Virus record (IMG/VR): IMGVR_UViG_2597489870_000002
Span: 1 to 44,053 of that record
Direction: 5' to 3' (one strand)
Source: a virus
Taxonomy: Duplodnaviria; Heunggongvirae; Uroviricota; Caudoviricetes
Length of the DNA: 44,053 nucleotides
Part shown: positions 5,833 through 36,647 of the stretch, in pieces
Position numbering within the stretch: position 1 is the first letter of the stretch
How the letters are laid out: every line of letters starts with the position of its first letter
Notes under the pieces: generated by a model
Seen by the model: only the letters and a program-made list of their open reading frames with translations
Database searches by the model: none
What the model was told of the DNA's origin: nothing
Made by a program: the position numbers and the translations under genes

Positions 5833-6417
5833 TTATTGTTTGTTTTTTTCGTTCTGGTTGATGACAAATTCAATGTAACTTTCGATCTTTGCTTTCTCGG
5901 TTTCGGGTAACAATGCGTAGCGCGAGCGGTCATAGTTGATGGTCGCAGGGTCGTGCGGGTGAATCAGTAATTCATAGCCGTGACGCCCGAATGCGGATGC
6001 AACATTCTCCAGGGTGGAAATGGAAACGCTGACCTCATTGTTTAACAGGCGGCTGATTGTCACCTGGGCGACGCCGGATGCGCGGTGAAGTTTTCCCTGT
6101 GTTGAAAGGTCGCGGCTTTCGCTCATCCAGCGTTCCAGGTTGTGAGCCGCCAGCTGACCTATATCGCTCGGGCCGACAGGCTGAAAACCTTCCTGAGAAA
6201 GCGAGCGATCGATATCAAGCCAGTTACGGGGTTTATTGGCGGCAGCTTCAATTTTTCGCGCAACCTGGTCGCCGATAACCTTCTTGCCAAGAGCCCAGCG
6301 GTTTACCAGATTTGCCTGAGTTCCAAGTTTTTCTGCCATCCGCGTCTGAACACCATTGAATTCACGGTCGATCAAGTCGTTGAGATTTTGCCTGCGGACG
6401 TCCTGGATACTTTTCAT
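5833..6417 (-). CDS. CI-like prophage repressor (HTH-XRE), no peptidase domain evident
   Basis: 194 aa; N-terminal HTH (GVQTRMAEKLGTQANLVNRWALGKK) and a second HTH-like segment (ASGVAQVTISRLLNNE); divergent from a cro-like gene across an operator region; no S24 Ser/Lys peptidase motifs seen. Confidence 0.75.
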   Translation of the reverse strand: MKSIQDVRRQNLNDLIDREFNGVQTRMAEKLGTQANLVNRWALGKKVIGDQVARKIEAAANKPRNWLDIDRSLSQEGFQPVGPSDIGQLAAHNLERWMSESRDLSTQGKLHRASGVAQVTISRLLNNEVSVSISTLENVASAFGRHGYELLIHPHDPATINYDRSRYALLPETEKAKIESYIEFVINQNEKNKQ

Positions 6418-6571: not shown

Positions 6572-6802
6572 ATGAGCGATAACGGACATTTCGATTTCAA
6601 AAAGCACTGGCTTGCACTTACTCCGGATGAGCGTGAAGCCTTCGCACAGGAAGCCGGAACGACGAGTCACTATATCCAGACTCACTTAACAGGTAAGCGC
6701 AAAATGCCAGGTAAGGTATTGATGAATGGGCTTTTTAAAGCCTGTAAAACAAGACAATGGCTGCGCTCAAAAGCAGAACTGGCATACTTCTTCTACTCAT
6801 GA
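6572..6802 (+). CDS. Cro-like small DNA-binding regulator
   Basis: 76 aa, divergent from repressor; HTH-like segment; position equivalent to lambda cro. Confidence 0.55.
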   Translation: MSDNGHFDFKKHWLALTPDEREAFAQEAGTTSHYIQTHLTGKRKMPGKVLMNGLFKACKTRQWLRSKAELAYFFYS

Positions 6803-15541: not shown

Positions 15542-15618
15542 TGGTGCGGCATGCAGGATTCGAACCTGCGGCCAACCGCTTAGAAGGCGGTTGCTCTATC
15601 CAACTGAGCTAATGCCAC
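15542..15618 (-). tRNA. tRNA-Arg (anticodon UCU)
   Basis: 77-nt cloverleaf ending in CCA; anticodon loop CUUCUAA; T-loop GGTTCGAATCC; 7-bp acceptor stem with one G-U pair. Confidence 0.85.
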
Positions 15619-32173: not shown

Positions 32174-32470
32174 ATGCAAGCGATAGGATTCATTGTTTAT
32201 ATCGTCGTTGGCCTTTTTCAGTTGGCAGCAATTATGGCTGGGCTTGAATCATGGTGGGGATTGCATTGGATAATTGCAGCCCCCATTGCTTTCATCGTGA
32301 GCTATATTCCATTTGTTGGAGCGATTGTTGGTATGGTTGGTGCTGTGGATGTATGGCGGTGGGAGTGGTGGCAGGCTGGCCTTCTCTTCTTTGGTGGGAT
32401 CATCTTTGCTATTGTCTGCGGTGGAATGTCATCATTTTTCGAATGGCTATCATTCAGAAAAAGAGTGTGA
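32174..32470 (+). CDS. Membrane protein (3 predicted helices)
   Basis: 98 aa, AGGTGA ribosome-binding site, strongly hydrophobic; followed by a terminator. Confidence 0.5.
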   Translation: MQAIGFIVYIVVGLFQLAAIMAGLESWWGLHWIIAAPIAFIVSYIPFVGAIVGMVGAVDVWRWEWWQAGLLFFGGIIFAIVCGGMSSFFEWLSFRKRV

Positions 32471-32478
32471 CATGTCAC

Positions 32479-32503
32479 AGGCCGCTTTCGCGGCCTTGTT
32501 TTT
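32479..32503 (+). terminator. Rho-independent terminator
   Basis: AGGCCGC-TTTC-GCGGCCT plus TTGTTTTT. Confidence 0.75.
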
Positions 32504-32663
32504 AACGAATGCCACCGCCGCCCGGGCGGGAATCCGCAGAACGCCCACCGCAGCGGGAGCCGTCAGCGGCAGTATCGCTGTCGTGCTGACAACGACCGGC
32601 AAAGGCCTGAGTTGAAGCTACCAGAGACAACAAAACGAACAGTGCAGCAAATGCTTTTTTCAT
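32502..32663 (-). CDS. Possible small secreted peptide
   Basis: Signal-peptide-like N-terminus (MKKAFAALFVLLSLVASTQAFA) then about 30 residues with 2 Cys; weak ribosome-binding site; lies between two terminators. Confidence 0.25.
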   Translation of the reverse strand: MKKAFAALFVLLSLVASTQAFAGRCQHDSDTAADGSRCGGRSADSRPGGGGIR

Positions 32664-32735: not shown

Positions 32736-32757
32736 AAAAAAGCCCGCGGCGCGGGCT
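32736..32757 (-). terminator. Rho-independent terminator of minus-strand two-gene operon
   Basis: GCCCGC-GGC-GCGGGC hairpin plus 6 U on minus strand, adjacent to the stop codon. Confidence 0.7.
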
Positions 32758-33134
32758 TAATTAACTTCGAGGATAATAGAATCTTTAGACTTGAATCCCA
32801 CTTTCCTCATGGCTGTAATGACGTTTTGGATAATCCACGTTTTCCCAAACTCTCTTTCGTGTACAATGGCGCAAGGAAAATGAAGGGCGCTTTTGTTGCA
32901 CTTTATGGTGAAAGTTGTACCTTCGGCAAAATCCAAAACAGTCTGCAGATGTGCAGATATAAACGATTTAAACACATCTTCAAGCTCAGCAAGAGTAATT
33001 GGCGGTTTGTTCCTCTCGTCGTTCAGGCGTTCATATGCTGCATGAAATGAAAAGTGAATTCTTGCCGCATCTTCTTGCAAGATCTCGTTAATCTCATCCT
33101 CAAGATCAATGAGTTGTTGTTCTGTTATAGACAT
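32757..33134 (-). CDS. Hypothetical acidic protein (second gene of overlapping pair)
   Basis: 125 aa; 10-nt overlap with upstream gene; no recognisable motif. Confidence 0.5.
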   Translation of the reverse strand: MSITEQQLIDLEDEINEILQEDAARIHFSFHAAYERLNDERNKPPITLAELEDVFKSFISAHLQTVLDFAEGTTFTIKCNKSALHFPCAIVHEREFGKTWIIQNVITAMRKVGFKSKDSIILEVN

Positions 33135-33343
33135 AGATAACGGGATGTCGCCTCACTTATTTTTTGATTTAATTCATCATCATTGGATGCGCGTACAGTA
33201 GCAACATGCTTACTTTGGCGTAGGGTCCCAATTCTGATATCAAATTCTTCATTATCGAAAGAGTCAACGAAAACAGCTTTACCAGTTTCTGGATGGTAAA
33301 AAGAGGCATAGTTTTGGTTGAGTTGCATATCAAATTTAAACAT
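33125..33343 (-). CDS. Hypothetical small protein (first gene of overlapping pair)
   Basis: 72 aa; GGGAGGATGAT ribosome-binding site; operator-bearing promoter upstream. Confidence 0.5.
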   Translation of the reverse strand: MFKFDMQLNQNYASFYHPETGKAVFVDSFDNEEFDIRIGTLRQSKHVATVRASNDDELNQKISEATSRYLCL

Positions 33344-33540: not shown

Positions 33541-34233
33541 TCAGAAGAACCCTGCCTTGTCGTTGATGTACTCCGCGTGCGTCTGGATATCACGCAGGCA
33601 TTTGCTCACACCGACGATGTAGCAGAACATGGTGGTCAGTTCCGCCGCCGCGCCCGATACATCATGCCCGTCGTCCTGCAACTGGTTTAGCAGATTCATC
33701 AGCAGTGAGTTCTCCGTCAGGCCGAGAACACCAGACGGCGAGTGAATCAGGCTACGGTAGCCTGGCTTCAGTGGGGCACTGTAGGTTTTGTTCTCTATCT
33801 TCATTGCCTGCATCACTGCTGATGCTGTGGCGTTGGCTACCTGGTCGGCAACCATCTTTATGCGCTCTTCCTGCGGGAGCGAGTTTTTAATGTAGCTTCC
33901 GGTGCGGCGGATCTGAGGAAGAACCTCACCTGTAACCCATTCAAGAAATCTGAATGCTCTCGTTCCCTCAGTCATTGCCTCTTTGCAACGCAGAATAAGG
34001 ATGTAGAGACCTGATTCTGAAACGATGGATAGTTCTTGTATTCCACCAGGGGTCTGTATTGAATACAGCCCCTTTTTGTTCCAGCCTTTTTTATCAAGTT
34101 TTCTCGCTTGTGTAACATCAATATTCAAAGCATTGCACACATCTTTGGTGACAAACCAAGGTTCTCCGTCAATCATGAACATACGGATCTGGCAGGATGA
34201 CTCAAAGGAAAAGATGGAAGGTTTGGTATTCAT
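33541..34233 (-). CDS. Antirepressor (Bro-N domain plus Ant C-terminal domain)
   Basis: Start at ATG 34231-34233 with AAGGTGA; Bro-N-type N-terminus (FESSCQIRMFMIDGEPWFVTKDVCNAL); C-terminal domain paralogous to ORF 35379-35654. Confidence 0.7.
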   Translation of the reverse strand: MNTKPSIFSFESSCQIRMFMIDGEPWFVTKDVCNALNIDVTQARKLDKKGWNKKGLYSIQTPGGIQELSIVSESGLYILILRCKEAMTEGTRAFRFLEWVTGEVLPQIRRTGSYIKNSLPQEERIKMVADQVANATASAVMQAMKIENKTYSAPLKPGYRSLIHSPSGVLGLTENSLLMNLLNQLQDDGHDVSGAAAELTTMFCYIVGVSKCLRDIQTHAEYINDKAGFF

Positions 34234-34387
34234 GGCGATCACCTTTGTAGTTAGGTTAATCACCACCGCTGAGACCAATCAGATGGTGGTGAACTGTGCA
34301 GAGTTGGTCTTACCGGCTACAAAGGAACCCGGCGCACCTTTCGGTGCCCCCACACAGCCCACCATAGAATAGGTGCGCTTTACACAT

Positions 34388-34406
34388 AAAAAAACCGCTT
34401 ATGCGG
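34388..34406 (-). terminator. Short intrinsic terminator in the ant leader
   Basis: CCGC-TTAT-GCGG stem plus 7 U on minus strand, preceded by two further stem-loops. Confidence 0.4.
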
Positions 34407-34500
34407 CGTATGTGCCTCTGTAGTAATCCGGGAGACCAATCCCGGCACTGGATTTTGCCAGTGCCTGATTACTATGGCACAAGAGGAGTGCGATGTAAAT

Positions 34501-34609
34501 TTACCGCAAAGGTAATGATAAGCGAGGAGAAATATCAAAATCAACCGTATTTGGTTGATGGAGTTTAACGCTTGATCACCTGAAAGCAAGATATTACCTT
34601 TAAGGTAAT
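34501..34609. promoter_or_regulatory. Divergent promoter region with two operator palindromes
   Basis: TTACCGCAAAGGTAAT (34501-34516) and TTACCTTTAAGGTAAT (34594-34609). Confidence 0.55.
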
Positions 34610-34628
34610 GTTATTGTGAGGAAAAGCA

Positions 34629-35357
34629 ATGGAAGTTTTCTGGATAGTTGTTGGTGTGGTTGCGGTGATTATTTACGTTATCAACCAGAACAAGACTAAG
34701 ATCTCTGATCGTACGGTCGTTAATCAGAACAAAACGATAAAGACCGAAGATGGGGAGATAACGATTAATCGTACACAGGTGATAGACCGCACCTCCACTC
34801 AGTTTCACAAAGCTGGAGGTGATGCGCCTAATATTTCCGTACCTCCTGATTATGATAGTGCGGTAATCCAGACATATTATAAACAGCAGGAGTTAGCAAA
34901 AGAGAGGCAACTGATTCAGCCAAAGCCATTTACAGCAGAGCTGCCACCTGGTGTGTCAACGCGTCCGACATATCATGGAAGATTCCCTGGTGATGACATA
35001 TCGTCTCAGTCACCTAAAAAAGCACTTCAGGTAGTATCAGAGCCAGCAAGAATACCTTCTGTGTCGCCGCCAAAAGAAGAATCAGCTAACAGAGTTTCAA
35101 GTGGTAGCAAGCAGTGTTTGCGATGCAGAATAAACCTTCCATATGAAAAATTCAGGAAATCTTCAAAAAATCCAGATGGATTGACTAAGTGGTGTGCAAG
35201 GTGTCTCGATGGCCCAAAGAATACACGCCATATGAAGTGGTGCCCAATTTGTAATGTCCGCAGAAAACGAACCAGCTTTTACCCTAATAATCAAAATGCG
35301 GATGGCTTAATGGCATGGTGCAAAACGTGCTGGGACGAGCACAAAGCGAAACGATAG
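34629..35357 (+). CDS. Membrane-anchored protein with tandem zinc-ribbon repeats
   Basis: 242 aa; N-terminal hydrophobic helix; C-terminus has two copies of C-x2-C...DGL-x2-WC-x2-C. Confidence 0.55.
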   Translation: MEVFWIVVGVVAVIIYVINQNKTKISDRTVVNQNKTIKTEDGEITINRTQVIDRTSTQFHKAGGDAPNISVPPDYDSAVIQTYYKQQELAKERQLIQPKPFTAELPPGVSTRPTYHGRFPGDDISSQSPKKALQVVSEPARIPSVSPPKEESANRVSSGSKQCLRCRINLPYEKFRKSSKNPDGLTKWCARCLDGPKNTRHMKWCPICNVRRKRTSFYPNNQNADGLMAWCKTCWDEHKAKR

Positions 35358-35378
35358 GCCGCTCTTGCGGCCTTTTCT

Positions 35379-35654
35379 TTATGTGGTTTGTTTTCGTAAT
35401 TGTTCAGCACAATAGTCGAGATGTGTTTGCAGATCCTGCATAGACATCTGTGAGCTGGTGACGTAGTTAATCAGTGCAGTCAGTTCGGCAAGTGGGCCAT
35501 CGACATTAAATCCATCCTTATCGAGATCCCGGAGTAATTTCATCAAGTGCGATCCCTCCACCAGTGACCTGACGCCTCCCGGCGTGTGAATCCTTTCGGT
35601 AAATCCGTCTTCCAGTGGATAGTGATACTGCTGCATCTTATCTTCCCCATGCAA
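35379..35654 (-). CDS. Stand-alone antirepressor C-terminal-domain paralog
   Basis: 91 aa; roughly 45 percent identical by eye over about 64 residues to the C-terminus of the 33541-34233 antirepressor. Confidence 0.5.
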   Translation of the reverse strand: MHGEDKMQQYHYPLEDGFTERIHTPGGVRSLVEGSHLMKLLRDLDKDGFNVDGPLAELTALINYVTSSQMSMQDLQTHLDYCAEQLRKQTT

Positions 35655-35831: not shown

Positions 35832-36647
35832 ATGACGGTCTCAACCGAAGTTGACCACAACGAATACACAGGTAACGGCGTTACGACATCATTTCCTTAT
35901 ACCTTTAGGGTTTTCAATAAATCTGATCTGGTAGTGCAGGTGATTGACCCTGACGAGAATATCACTGTGCTGGCTCTTGATACTGATTACACGGTGACGG
36001 GGGCTGGAGGATATACTGGCGGGAATGTCATCCTCACAACTGCTCTGGAGAATGGATTTCGTATTTCGATAGCACGTGAACTCCCAGTTACGCAGGAAAC
36101 CGATCTGCGCAATCAAGGCAAGTTCTTTGCAGAGGTGCATGAGGATGCTTTTGATAAGTTAACTATGCTGCTTCAACAGGTTAGAAGTTGGTTTAGTCTG
36201 GCGCTGCGCAAGCCGTCGTTTGTCGCAAACTACTATGATGCTCTTGGTAACTACATCCGCAATCTTCGTGACCCGTCACGTCCTCAGGATGCGGCCACCA
36301 AGAATTATGTCGACTCACTGGCAAGCATTAATCTGTCTAAAACGCTGAGAATGCCAGAGGCAGTACCAGAGCTTCCAAGCGCTGAGCTGAGAAAAAACAA
36401 AATTGTAGCAATGGATGATTCAGGAAATCCTATCATGGTTCTGCCTGAATCTGGTTCCGCTTCAGATGTAATGATTCAACTTGCATCAAGCAATGGTTTA
36501 AAGTTTATAGGTGATGTTCAGTCTGTTATAAAATTAAATGATGCTATCGGAAACATAGGTGATAAGATTTTTTTAAAGTCTTATGTTGAAGGTGAGAATA
36601 AAGGTGGTGGGATTCTTGTTGCTGTTGATAACTCACTATTAGCGTAA
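35832..36647 (+). pseudogene. Tailspike/tail fibre, N-terminal fragment truncated by IS insertion
   Basis: N-terminus of podovirus tail-fibre anchor type (NEYTGNGVTTSFPYTF); reading frame runs into the IS left end and stops at TAA inside the inverted repeat. Confidence 0.7.
36636..36643. repeat. Target-site duplication, left copy (CTATTAGC)
   Basis: Identical 8-mer at 39343-39350 directly outside the IS termini. Confidence 0.8.

Follow-up and report, generated by a model that had tools for sequence, protein, structure and literature searches.

The immunity regions of temperate phages were the first source of exclusion and abortive-infection genes, among them rexAB of lambda and sieA of P22, the exclusion genes of the immC and immI regions, respectively; most of the small accessory genes in such regions are unannotated. 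One of these small genes is the subject of the present work. It encodes a 242-aa protein with a predicted membrane anchor and two Cys4 zinc fingers, and it is located between an antirepressor gene and a gene related to a part of it. The stretch of DNA analysed, 44,053 nucleotides in full and referred to as the window, is an E. coli prophage of the epsilon15/phiV10-like type. What might a protein of this design do for the prophage that carries it? The features on which our answer is based are collected in Table 1.

Table 1. Coordinates of the zinc-finger gene, its encoded domains and its neighbours within the window
Feature	Position	Strand	Basis
Bro-N antirepressor	33541..34278	-	Pfam Bro-N E 2e-13; PHROG 130 anti-repressor Ant E 2.7e-51
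Antirepressor-operon leader	34282..34477	-	c4 a1/b1 targets 34425-34477; isrK-like RNA 34388-34464; C4 antisense RNA 34282-34369
Antirepressor-operon promoter	34500..34544	-	-35 TTGATT (34544-34539), -10 TATCAT (34520-34515); promoter scan
Cassette (promoter region + CDS), missing in phiV10-type relatives	34522..35355	.	Flank-only matches; GC
Putative sigma-70 promoter of zinc-finger gene	34572..34600	+	-35 TTGATC (34572-34577), 17-nt spacer, -10 TACCTT (34595-34600)
Perfect 17-bp operator palindrome ATTACCTTTAAGGTAAT	34593..34609	.	Overlaps putative -10 of zinc-finger gene promoter
Shine-Dalgarno GAGGA	34618..34622	+	6 nt upstream of ATG; read from sequence
CDS, 242 aa, membrane-anchored tandem zinc-finger protein (PHROG 6762 family)	34629..35357	+	ORF call, RefSeq, homologues, PHROG
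Single N-terminal transmembrane helix, residues 3-20, predicted N-out/C-in	34635..34688	+	AF2 pLDDT ~90; flank charges
Juxtamembrane beta-hairpin, conserved, residues 25-56	34701..34796	+	AF2 strands 25-39 and 42-56; conserved columns
Disordered Pro/Ser/Gln-rich variable linker, residues 57-156	34797..35096	+	pLDDT <50 over most
Zinc finger 1, residues 160-194 (C163, C166, C189, C192)	35106..35210	+	Invariant Cys; pLDDT >90
Zinc finger 2, residues 202-241 (C205, C208, C231, C234), basic RRKR knuckle	35232..35351	+	
Rho-independent terminator hairpin AGGCCGCTCTTGCGGCCT, then T-run	35356..35383	.	Terminator scan; between convergent zinc-finger and gp19-like genes
epsilon15 gp19-like small protein	35379..35654	-	PHROG 450; phiV10 p24 annotation

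The gene, its family and its cassette

The open reading frame opens at the first start codon downstream of a stop, and RefSeq lists a CDS of identical coordinates as a hypothetical protein. The product and PHROG 6762, a family annotated as 'unknown function', aligned over their whole length (E 2.5e-147, residues 1-242 against all 242 profile positions). No NCBIfam model scored above threshold, and a search of PADLOC-DB v2 (5027 defence models) with the query and four diverse family members returned no match at E values up to 0.1. We collected 33 homologues with identities of 38-93%, and the full architecture of transmembrane (TM) helix, hairpin and exactly two fingers was kept down to approximately 26% identity across the Gammaproteobacteria, with family members in prophages of Serratia, Yersinia, Acinetobacter, Aeromonas, Haemophilus and marine Gammaproteobacteria. 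The full-length gene was present in 129 of 5426 complete E. coli genomes (~2%), which is about a third of the related prophages when only the 362 genomes having the flanks are counted. A lack of conservation and expression had been named as grounds for refuting the original prediction; the gene is real and conserved. Only six of 50,697 phage records contained it; among these phages, TL-2011b matches the integrated prophage of the window and phiARM81mr encodes a CI repressor.

The gene is carried by an insert of approximately 830 bp with a GC content of 0.43, as compared with 0.505 for the window, and phiV10 and other relatives align to the flanks of this cassette only. The terminator directly 3' of the stop codon lies outside the insert and is common to phiV10, in which the equivalent site carries a terminator annotation; a similar hairpin was observed downstream of the Providencia homologue. 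Together, the insert, the putative promoter, the terminator, the deviant GC and the patchy distribution mark the gene as an accessory gene of the moron type. The paper on phage vB_EcoP_ZX5, which is without the zinc-finger gene, confirmed the roles of repressor and antirepressor in this phage genus and makes no mention of the gene.

Membrane anchor, linker and tandem Cys4 module

The original prediction of one N-terminal transmembrane helix was supported by hydrophobicity and by the AF2 model alike; residues 3-21 form the sole strongly hydrophobic stretch of the protein (Kyte-Doolittle 17-residue mean 2.7; 15-residue mean 3.0). The flank N-terminal to the helix consists of two residues with a charge of -1, and the C-terminal flank is net positive in 33 of the 34 family members (mean +2.8). 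Because of the positive-inside rule, and because Cys4 zinc sites need a reducing compartment, we infer an N-out/C-in topology, which fits the charge distribution over the 34 members. A Sec signal peptide was excluded, since the protein has neither a basic n-region (residue 2 is Glu) nor a cleavage motif and its Cys4 domain suits the cytoplasm.

Within the hairpin that follows the helix, T39, G42 and E43 are invariant or nearly so in homologue alignments; its AF2 model is of low confidence, with a pLDDT of only ~45-65. The low-complexity linker described earlier was recovered as the disordered segment of Table 1. Its length varies among homologues, the distance from the TM helix to the first Cys being 85-141 aa over the family, and its dN/dS relative to TL-2011b was ~1.2, a figure that has few substitutions behind it.

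The C-terminal tandem Cys repeat was likewise confirmed. Finger 1 and finger 2 share 35% identity across a stretch of 37 residues (E 2e-7, single comparison), and all eight Cys, arranged as C163-x2-C166-x22-C189-x2-C192-x12-C205-x2-C208-x22-C231-x2-C234, were invariant in 29 homologues and in 34 more distant ones; cysteines other than these eight are absent from most family members. The domain has a net charge of +14 in the window and of +10 to +19 in 34 of 34 family members. AF2 produced a compact and confident tandem fold (pLDDT 88-95), in which the fingers were modelled as knuckle-plus-helix units of the treble-clef, Stc1-like kind and not as classical zinc ribbons. Of the 'duplicated zinc-ribbon' first described, the duplication stands and the ribbon fold is replaced in the model. 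The eight conserved Cys are predicted to make up two consecutive zinc sites within one small domain, as in Stc1. When PDB sequences were searched with the domain, nothing better than a RING match at chance level (E 0.97) came up. Phage zinc fingers of the Ogr/Delta and TraR/DksA types were rejected, as there was no Pfam match and the last Cys pair is spaced differently.

Several lines of evidence link the module to Stc1. The sole Pfam model with a match, Stc1 (PF12898), was matched weakly and over its second half only (19.5 bits, E 0.0015), below the gathering threshold of 24.8 bits, which three relatives found by profile search exceeded (P0034, P0084 and P0051, with 33.9, 31.1 and 25.4 bits). 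The best PDB match in Foldseek was the tandem finger of Stc1 (2LUY, E 3e-3, prob 0.90), and BFVD relatives bear the label 'Stc1 domain'. Also among the best structural matches were viral endonucleases of the HNH and EndoVII kinds and the beta-beta-alpha-Me enzymes Hpy99I and PacI, through their zinc-stabilised cores, and relatives retrieved by profile search are fused to HNH, EndoVII, SF1-helicase or DnaJ domains. The module is an Stc1-like finger of the kind repeated N-terminally in phage and giant-virus HNH and EndoVII nucleases (PHROGs 1035, 2633 and 2255). Unlike these nucleases, the protein of the window has no nuclease domain, and its finger units, exactly two in number, are C-terminal and follow a membrane anchor. 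Pfam HNH and Endonuclease_7 gave no match to the 242-aa protein at E values up to 1, and in two homologue alignments no catalytic His or metal-binding Asn/His was conserved at the corresponding positions; the likeness to Hpy99I and PacI is confined to the zinc scaffold. A published account of zinc-ribbon HNH nickases deals with other zinc-ribbon types. The statement that the architecture was not recognised thus requires qualification: it holds for the whole protein, which has no described function and whose matching family, PHROG 6762, has none either, and it does not hold for the zinc module, even though the query itself falls below the Stc1 threshold.

Kinship with nuclease-linked fingers raised the question of whether the gene is a degenerate HNH/EndoVII homing-endonuclease remnant that kept its fingers, lost its nuclease and has no phage function. 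The finger units are indeed the same as those preceding HNH and EndoVII domains, and the gene sits on a discrete low-GC insert. However, the full architecture and the eight invariant Cys persist across the Gammaproteobacteria, the dN/dS of 0.15 for the zinc domain indicates purifying selection, and decay would not be expected to keep a Shine-Dalgarno sequence of its own, an operator-controlled putative promoter and a downstream terminator. This conservation pattern largely refutes the remnant, which we regard as highly improbable.

What the fingers might bind was approached through the same relatives. Since the HNH, EndoVII and SF1-helicase fusions act on nucleic acids, they support a nucleic-acid ligand for the module; charge and domain co-occurrence are the grounds on which we infer that the zinc-finger domain may bind nucleic acid. 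For two of the fusions, P0106 with a helicase and P0146 with DnaJ, the surrounding genes were uninformative. Stc1 of fission yeast shares with the protein of the window the two consecutive Cys4 fingers in one small domain. It differs in being a soluble eukaryotic adaptor that binds Ago1, with no membrane anchor, no prophage context and a charge very different from +14. To our knowledge it is the sole characterised Stc1-domain protein, and its tandem finger contacts Ago1, i.e., a protein and not a nucleic acid.

Operators, promoters and the immunity neighbourhood

The operator that had been announced ahead of the gene was found. The palindrome ATTACCTTTAAGGTAAT corresponds to the consensus of a cluster of sites that separates the repressor gene (5833-6417) from the cro-like gene, where three copies of the motif are located. 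Allowing up to three mismatches, the motif had 17 matches at 11 places (0.09 expected), and its core had 16 sites (1.1 expected); a literature search on this motif in epsilon15 returned nothing relevant. The accompanying claim, that the gene is transcribed from a promoter shared with the antirepressor, had to be abandoned. Instead, we recognise in the sequence two back-to-back promoters separated by approximately 30 bp, and a separate operator copy accompanies each of them (34500-34516 and 34593-34609). The putative sigma-70 promoter assigned to the zinc-finger gene was read by eye and was not called by the consensus promoter scan; the Serratia, Pectobacterium and Providencia homologues have a matching upstream geometry, with a -35 element, 16-17 nt and an operator-embedded -10. 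Promoters 3' of the operator were excluded, as no space would be left for a 5' UTR and the Shine-Dalgarno sequence. Since this promoter carries the repressor's operator, the gene would belong to the immunity regulon, and since its -10 lies inside a perfect operator, we predict that it is silent in the lysogen. For the present prophage, it is thus reasonable to expect co-regulation with induction, as first proposed.

The divergent antirepressor operon, in which RefSeq places the start of the Bro-N antirepressor at 34233, includes an isrK-like leader and a C4 antisense RNA of the P1 type, as judged by Rfam scores of 78.6 bits for C4 (gathering score 45) and 73 bits for isrK (gathering score 50); c4-a1b1 scored 38.4 bits, under its gathering score of 46.7. 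Neither RNA had been noticed when the locus was first read, nor had the conserved hairpin at residues 25-56. The gene had also been described as flanked by antirepressor paralogs, which is correct for the Bro-N antirepressor on the left. On the right, the gp19-like protein is only a stand-alone paralogue of the Ant C-terminal domain (42% identity over 74 aa, Ant residues 164-237).

The neighbourhood was then compared over 22 non-redundant loci of Gammaproteobacteria. Eight of the 22 have a repressor gene as immediate neighbour, an antirepressor-type gene is no more than four genes away in 12, and 18 have one or the other or both. In Marinobacterium, Neptunomonas and the Aeromonas phage phiARM81mr, the homologue begins 15-18 nt downstream of cI with a Shine-Dalgarno sequence in the gap, an arrangement that implies expression in the lysogen and with which the predicted silence of the gene in the present prophage is in conflict. 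Elsewhere, homologues were located between the ejection-protein genes and the ant region, beside the tailspike gene.

Such a position invites the view that the product modulates the immunity switch itself. The finger would serve as a protein adaptor of the Stc1 or LIM kind that tethers or sequesters a regulator at the membrane, thereby tuning lysis-lysogeny or induction frequency; possible targets include the repressor, the antirepressor and its gp19-like C-domain paralogue, as well as host factors, for instance a protease. Such a role would agree with the frequency of repressor and antirepressor neighbours, with the placement between Ant and its domain paralogue in the window and with the repressor operator in the promoter; moreover, the best solved structural match is a protein-protein adaptor, and the DnaJ fusion suggests a protein client. 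Against it, no conserved partner gene was found across the loci, some having Ant only, some cI only and four neither, while the conserved positive charge and the nuclease and helicase fusions favour nucleic acid. Furthermore, the same c4/ant circuit operates in phiV10-type phages, which lack the gene; the gene is consequently not a core part of the switch. On balance we consider a switch modulator possible but rather unlikely. A related and still less probable proposal is a membrane-tethered component of the immunity circuit, whose fingers would capture a regulator or a regulatory RNA (for example, the antirepressor, the stand-alone C-domain paralogue or the c4/isrK-ant transcript) and so couple the switch to the state of the cell envelope. 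We know of no envelope-coupled layer of prophage control; if the proposal were true, such control would be common to cI-linked and ant-linked phages across the Gammaproteobacteria.

Expression timing also bears on a role in tethering the phage's own replicating or entering DNA to the membrane. The early protein p16.7 of Bacillus phage phi29 is anchored by an N-terminal TM segment and binds DNA through its C-terminal domain, a design matched here by the N-terminal anchor and basic cytoplasmic domain, and repressor-operator control predicts early lytic expression in this prophage. In contrast to p16.7, which has a dimeric helical DNA-binding domain and is needed for membrane-associated replication, the gene of the window is immunity-linked and dispensable, being absent from approximately two-thirds of related E. 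coli prophages and from phiV10. In addition, replication genes were never adjacent in the loci examined, and in the three lineages with a cI operon the product would be made while phage DNA is not replicating. A genome tether is accordingly an explanation to which we assign little weight.

A candidate exclusion or abortive-infection factor

In the reading that we prefer, with a probability of roughly 0.35, the protein is tethered to the membrane, binds nucleic acid and acts in exclusion or abortive infection, as an analogue but not a homologue of AbiP and PdpSau. The N-terminal helix would act as an inner-membrane anchor with only about two residues outside, leaving the conserved beta-hairpin, the long flexible linker and the compact, very basic tandem Cys4 domain on the cytoplasmic side. 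At the inner surface of the membrane, the zinc-finger domain would bind nucleic acid or else a nucleoprotein of a phage, the TM helix and hairpin would serve as anchor or effector, and an incoming or competing phage would be hindered by superinfection exclusion or abortive infection. With the repressor operator covering the -10 of the gene's own promoter, absence or inactivation of the repressor would turn the gene on together with the divergent antirepressor operon.

The analogy is with two proteins of Gram-positive hosts. PdpSau, encoded by a S. aureus prophage, combines an N-terminal TM helix with a cytoplasmic, positively charged domain of DNA-binding type, and causes abortive infection (PMC10127798). 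In AbiP of Lactococcus, the TM and nucleic-acid-binding parts are both apparently essential for the phenotype (PMC13064643, PMC10127798). The arrangement of an N-terminal TM helix followed by a basic cytoplasmic domain, a prediction in the present case, is shared with both; there is no kinship in sequence or fold, as OB-fold or other domains take the place of zinc fingers, and the defence phenotype demonstrated for those proteins is a candidate role here.

Position provides a second, circumstantial parallel, immunity-adjacent slots being occupied by regulators as well. The slots held by homologues, after cI and near ant and the tailspike gene, match those of lambda rexAB, which lies just after cI, and of P22 sieA. 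No homology is involved, and the polytopic membrane proteins RexB and SieA lack zinc fingers. The predicted silence in the lysogen speaks against the exclusion reading: classical prophage exclusion genes such as rexAB and sieA are co-expressed with the repressor, whereas the zinc-finger gene of the window is predicted to be repressed by it.

What can be said with most assurance is that this prophage gene is real and conserved; for the blocking of other phages it is a plausible candidate. The family represents a compact single-gene candidate of clearly modular build, in which a membrane anchor and its hairpin are paired with a portable basic zinc module that elsewhere is fused to nucleases, a helicase or a J-domain. 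If the protein does exclude phages, it would be a new, non-homologous member of the AbiP/PdpSau design and would give a function to a zinc-finger module that is widespread among viral genomes; an action on the switch would instead make it a regulator of a new kind.

Anatomy of the protein and identity of its zinc module

The zinc-finger gene (PHROG 6762) has a GAGGA Shine-Dalgarno sequence 6 nt upstream and encodes a protein of 242 aa; in RefSeq this ORF is listed as a hypothetical protein. The original prediction of a membrane-anchored protein with one N-terminal transmembrane (TM) helix, a low-complexity linker and a C-terminal tandem repeat was borne out: the sole hydrophobic helix spans residues 3-20, the linker is predicted to be disordered and is rich in Pro, Ser and Gln, and the repeat consists of two Cys4 units, 35% identical to each other, in which all eight Cys are invariant across homologues. 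The conserved Thr-rich hairpin stretch behind the helix was absent from that description. Among 34 family members, the charge ahead of the TM helix is typically -1, over a 2-residue segment, the 15 residues behind it have a mean charge of +2.8, the net charge of the zinc domain is +10 to +19 in all 34, and 29 possess exactly eight Cys. Based on the positive-inside rule, and since zinc sites of the Cys4 type require a reducing environment, the protein's C-terminal part should be cytoplasmic.

The predicted structure (AF2) of the zinc domain has a confidence (pLDDT) of >90 in the full-length model and of 88 when the domain is modelled alone. In this model a knuckle is followed by a helix starting at the second Cys pair, which suggests a treble-clef-like finger and not the classical zinc-ribbon originally proposed. 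Foldseek returned as its top solved structure the tandem zinc finger of Stc1 (2LUY; E 3e-3, probability 0.90), while matches in BFVD, with E down to 3e-7, included HNH, EndoVII and beta-beta-alpha-Me endonucleases, "Stc1 domain" proteins and giant-virus zinc-finger proteins. The Pfam Stc1 match was below threshold (19.5 against 24.8 bits). Each finger unit was matched by the PHROG profiles "endonuclease VII", "HNH endonuclease" and "Lar-like" (E 2.5e-11 to 2e-5), the nuclease-profile matches being confined to the parts ahead of the nuclease, and family alignments revealed no conserved candidates for catalytic His or Asn residues in the fingers.

A profile search with the zinc domain among 1.84 billion cluster representatives identified 3097 proteins at E up to 0.001. 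One class, of about 150-240 aa, shares the TM helix, hairpin, linker and two fingers; a second consists of arrays of 4-10 finger units, which end C-terminally in HNH (P0051, P0122) or EndoVII (P0117). Further fusions pair the two-finger module with an SF1 helicase (P0106) and with a DnaJ domain (P0146), and several of the fusion and array relatives pass the Pfam Stc1 threshold. Given this recurrence in other proteins and the lack of such conserved His or Asn candidates, the zinc module is a known, portable, non-catalytic finger. The architecture had at first not been recognised; this no longer holds for the module, a finger of the Stc1/HNH/EndoVII type, and it stands for the whole architecture, which represents an uncharacterised, widespread family tied to prophage immunity regions.

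A cassette in prophage immunity regions

E. coli SEC470 (NZ_CP007594.1, reverse strand) carries a prophage identical to the window, and the temperate phage TL-2011b is 95% identical to the window in the region of the zinc-finger gene. The gene order of the window is that of the epsilon15/phiV10-type podoviruses.

Features of the window and of the zinc-finger protein
Feature	Position	Strand	Remarks
Integrase and recombination genes			start of the gene order
HTH repressor gene	5833-6417	-	
cro-like gene	6572-6802	+	
Replication genes, terminase, head genes			after the cro-like gene
Ejection-protein genes	up to 31978		
Small accessory gene block			between ejection-protein genes and ant
Bro-N antirepressor gene (ant)	33541-34278	-	
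C4 antisense RNA	34282-34369	-	Rfam 78.6 bits (gathering score 45)
isrK-like RNA	34388-34464	-	Rfam 73 bits; terminator-like hairpin and T-run 34407-34394
c4 a1/b1 target sites	34425-34477	-	Rfam 38.4 bits, below gathering score
ant promoter-like site	-35 34544-34539; -10 34520-34515	-	
Candidate promoter of the zinc-finger gene	34572-34600		TTGATC, 17-nt spacer, TACCTT; -10 inside operator
Perfect palindrome ATTACCTTTAAGGTAAT	34593-34609		20 nt before ATG of the zinc-finger gene
Zinc-finger gene	34629-35357	+	between ant and the gp19-like gene
TM helix	residues 3-20		sole hydrophobic helix
Beta-hairpin	residues 25-56		conserved, Thr-rich; long hairpin in AF2, low confidence
Linker	residues 57-156		
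Tandem finger domain	residues 160-242		two C-x2-C-x22-C-x2-C units, 12 residues between
gp19-like gene	35379-35654	-	
Tail-fibre gene			after the gp19-like gene; IS66-interrupted
Lysis genes			after the tail-fibre gene
15-nt operator core starts, first half	5699, 5761, 6473, 6521, 6858, 8804, 8866, 10216		
15-nt operator core starts, second half	12575, 12593, 15883, 33461, 34501, 34594, 35713, 40850		

Both neighbours had been described as antirepressor paralogs; the left one is indeed a complete Bro-N Ant, while the right one, the gp19-like protein, is a copy of the Ant C-terminal domain alone (42% identity over 74 residues). Among the products of the accessory genes between the ejection-protein genes and ant, at 32174-32470 (+), 32502-32663 (-) and 32757-33343 (-), are a polytopic membrane protein of 98 aa (PHROG 3075), a lipoprotein-like "membrane associated protein" of the moron type, 53 aa long (PHROG 14503), and two small proteins with no function known. 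RefSeq places a tRNA-Arg gene at 15542-15618 (-), upstream of the head-gene operon, and labels the fibre gene an incomplete pseudogene. Since an IS66-family element (tnpA, tnpB, ISCro1-like transposase) cuts that gene short, the two together lying at 35832-36647 and 36697-39312, the prophage copy in the window can probably no longer form infectious particles.

The zinc-finger gene is a cassette: only its flanks align with phiV10 and several more relatives, the alignment breaking at about 34521 and resuming at the terminator past the stop codon, a hairpin at 35356-35373 that also serves the convergent gp19-like gene; the GC content of the insert is 0.43, versus 0.505 for the window. The full gene is found in 129 of 5426 complete E. 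coli genomes and its flanks in 362, and only 6 of 50,697 deposited phage genomes carry it (TL-2011b, Yersinia YeP4-6 and phiARM81mr). Enterobacterales hold 33 homologues of 38-93% identity; the family also occurs in Edwardsiella, Acinetobacter, Marinobacterium, Haemophilus, Pseudoalteromonas, Oceanobacter, Neptunomonas, a Neisseria MAG and many IMG/VR contigs, with a truncated copy in Aggregatibacter. Compared with TL-2011b, dN/dS is 0.15 for the zinc domain and about 1.2 for the linker, both calculated from few substitutions. The conservation pattern essentially excludes a decaying homing-endonuclease remnant.

The most informative result is the context in other genomes, for which the loci were reduced to 22 non-redundant family members. 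In 8 of the loci a repressor gene (CI-type HTH with S24, HTH regulator or Arc-like protein) is the direct neighbour, in 12 an antirepressor-type gene (Bro-N, KilA-N, Rha or Ant C-domain paralogue) lies within four genes, and 18 of the 22 show at least one of the two. The start of the gene lies 15-18 nt past the cI stop codon, with a Shine-Dalgarno sequence in the gap, in Marinobacterium, Neptunomonas and Aeromonas phage phiARM81mr; the depositors of phiARM81mr labelled the neighbouring genes "Cro" and "CI repressor". In an Acinetobacter epsilon15-like prophage it follows an Arc-like gene divergent from a KilA-N antirepressor gene, an arrangement mirroring P22 mnt/ant. A tether for the phage's own DNA, like p16.7 of phi29, is improbable, as the gene is dispensable and the linkage to cI fits such a role poorly.

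No partner gene is conserved across the family loci. Two Acinetobacter-type loci (L019 1046-1342 and L101 5567-5878) encode a related membrane protein of ~100 aa between or beside the cI-type repressor and the zinc-finger gene, which could be a lineage-specific partner. Directly upstream of the Pectobacterium homologue (L012, 6446-6892) lies a HicA/HicB-type toxin-antitoxin pair (Pfam DUF1902, HicA_toxin), and the Superficieibacter locus (L014, 5419-5883) has two candidate ORFs that match the pair in size and position; this supports a slot that collects accessory or defence cargo. In Marinobacterium the product of the downstream gene (L020, 6654-7307) is a staphylococcal-nuclease-like, secreted protein that has an Excalibur domain.

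Control region between ant and the zinc-finger gene

The gap of 350 bp holds more than a simple shared promoter. The C4 and isrK-like RNAs and the c4 target sites constitute a P1/P7-type immI leader of ant (34282-34477, -), and the ant promoter-like site is overlapped by TTACCGCAAAGGTAA at 34501-34515; this epsilon15-like prophage thus joins P1-style antisense control of ant to a repressor operator at the same promoter. With up to 3 mismatches allowed, the palindrome motif is present at 11 places of the window (0.09 matches expected), and its core, TTACC-N5-GGTAA, at 16 sites with at most 1 mismatch (1.1 expected). Since the stretch from the repressor gene to the cro-like gene has three copies between them and two more lie ahead of the early-left genes, the motif is the operator used by the immunity repressor or by Cro. 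Most other copies precede operons (replication-region genes, head, tail fibre, lysis). Because most of the 16 core copies are intergenic and ahead of operons, namely early-left, replication region, head, ant, tail fibre and lysis, the repressor seems to silence each operon directly, in the manner of P1 C1, and not through a lambda-like cascade.

The candidate promoter of the zinc-finger gene is our own reading, the TTGATC/TACCTT site not having been called by the promoter scan. Three homologues likewise have, in their upstream regions, a -35 hexamer 16-17 nt ahead of an operator-embedded -10. For those of Serratia and Pectobacterium the operator varies the window's palindrome, and for that of Providencia it is a different palindrome, as expected if each copy obeys the resident repressor. 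The original prediction of an operator-bearing promoter region holds, with a perfect palindrome at the gene, but not that of a divergent promoter shared with ant: the candidate promoters are separate, each overlapped by the operator motif. Under this promoter reading the lysogen would keep the zinc-finger gene repressed, and the gene would come on at the same time as ant.

The repressor (194 aa) matched HTH-type regulator families only, and no S24 peptidase family, in NCBIfam and PHROG scans. Should the repressor lack a domain for self-cleavage, induction would presumably rely on the antirepressor, as in the related phage vB_EcoP_ZX5, where this was demonstrated by overexpression (PMC9782041).

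Proposed function

We propose, with a probability of about 0.35, that the protein is a membrane-tethered nucleic-acid-binding exclusion or abortive-infection factor. The design would combine an anchor, a flexible tether and a strongly basic finger module, in which the zinc module may act as sensor or binder, and the TM helix with the hairpin as anchor or possibly oligomerising effector. This reading draws on that design, on the enzymes acting on nucleic acids that the module accompanies elsewhere, and on the position of the gene in the immunity region, where lambda houses rexAB and P22 sieA. It also draws on two proven abortive-infection factors of the same design, although unrelated proteins: AbiP, whose N-terminal TM domain and non-specific nucleic-acid-binding domain are apparently both essential (PMC13064643), and the prophage-encoded PdpSau, which has a TM helix at its N-terminus and a positively charged C-terminal domain of DNA-binding type (PMC10127798). 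A weak point is that the protein matched none of the PADLOC defence models. Stc1 itself, moreover, is a protein-binding adaptor, and the repression in the lysogen predicted here conflicts with the co-transcription with cI elsewhere. The main rival, in which the protein would modulate the immunity switch by binding a regulator at the membrane, we consider rather unlikely.

The zinc-finger gene is a good and cheap experimental target and only moderately surprising. If the exclusion or abortive-infection function is true, its product would be a membrane-anchored nucleic-acid-binding accessory protein of prophages.
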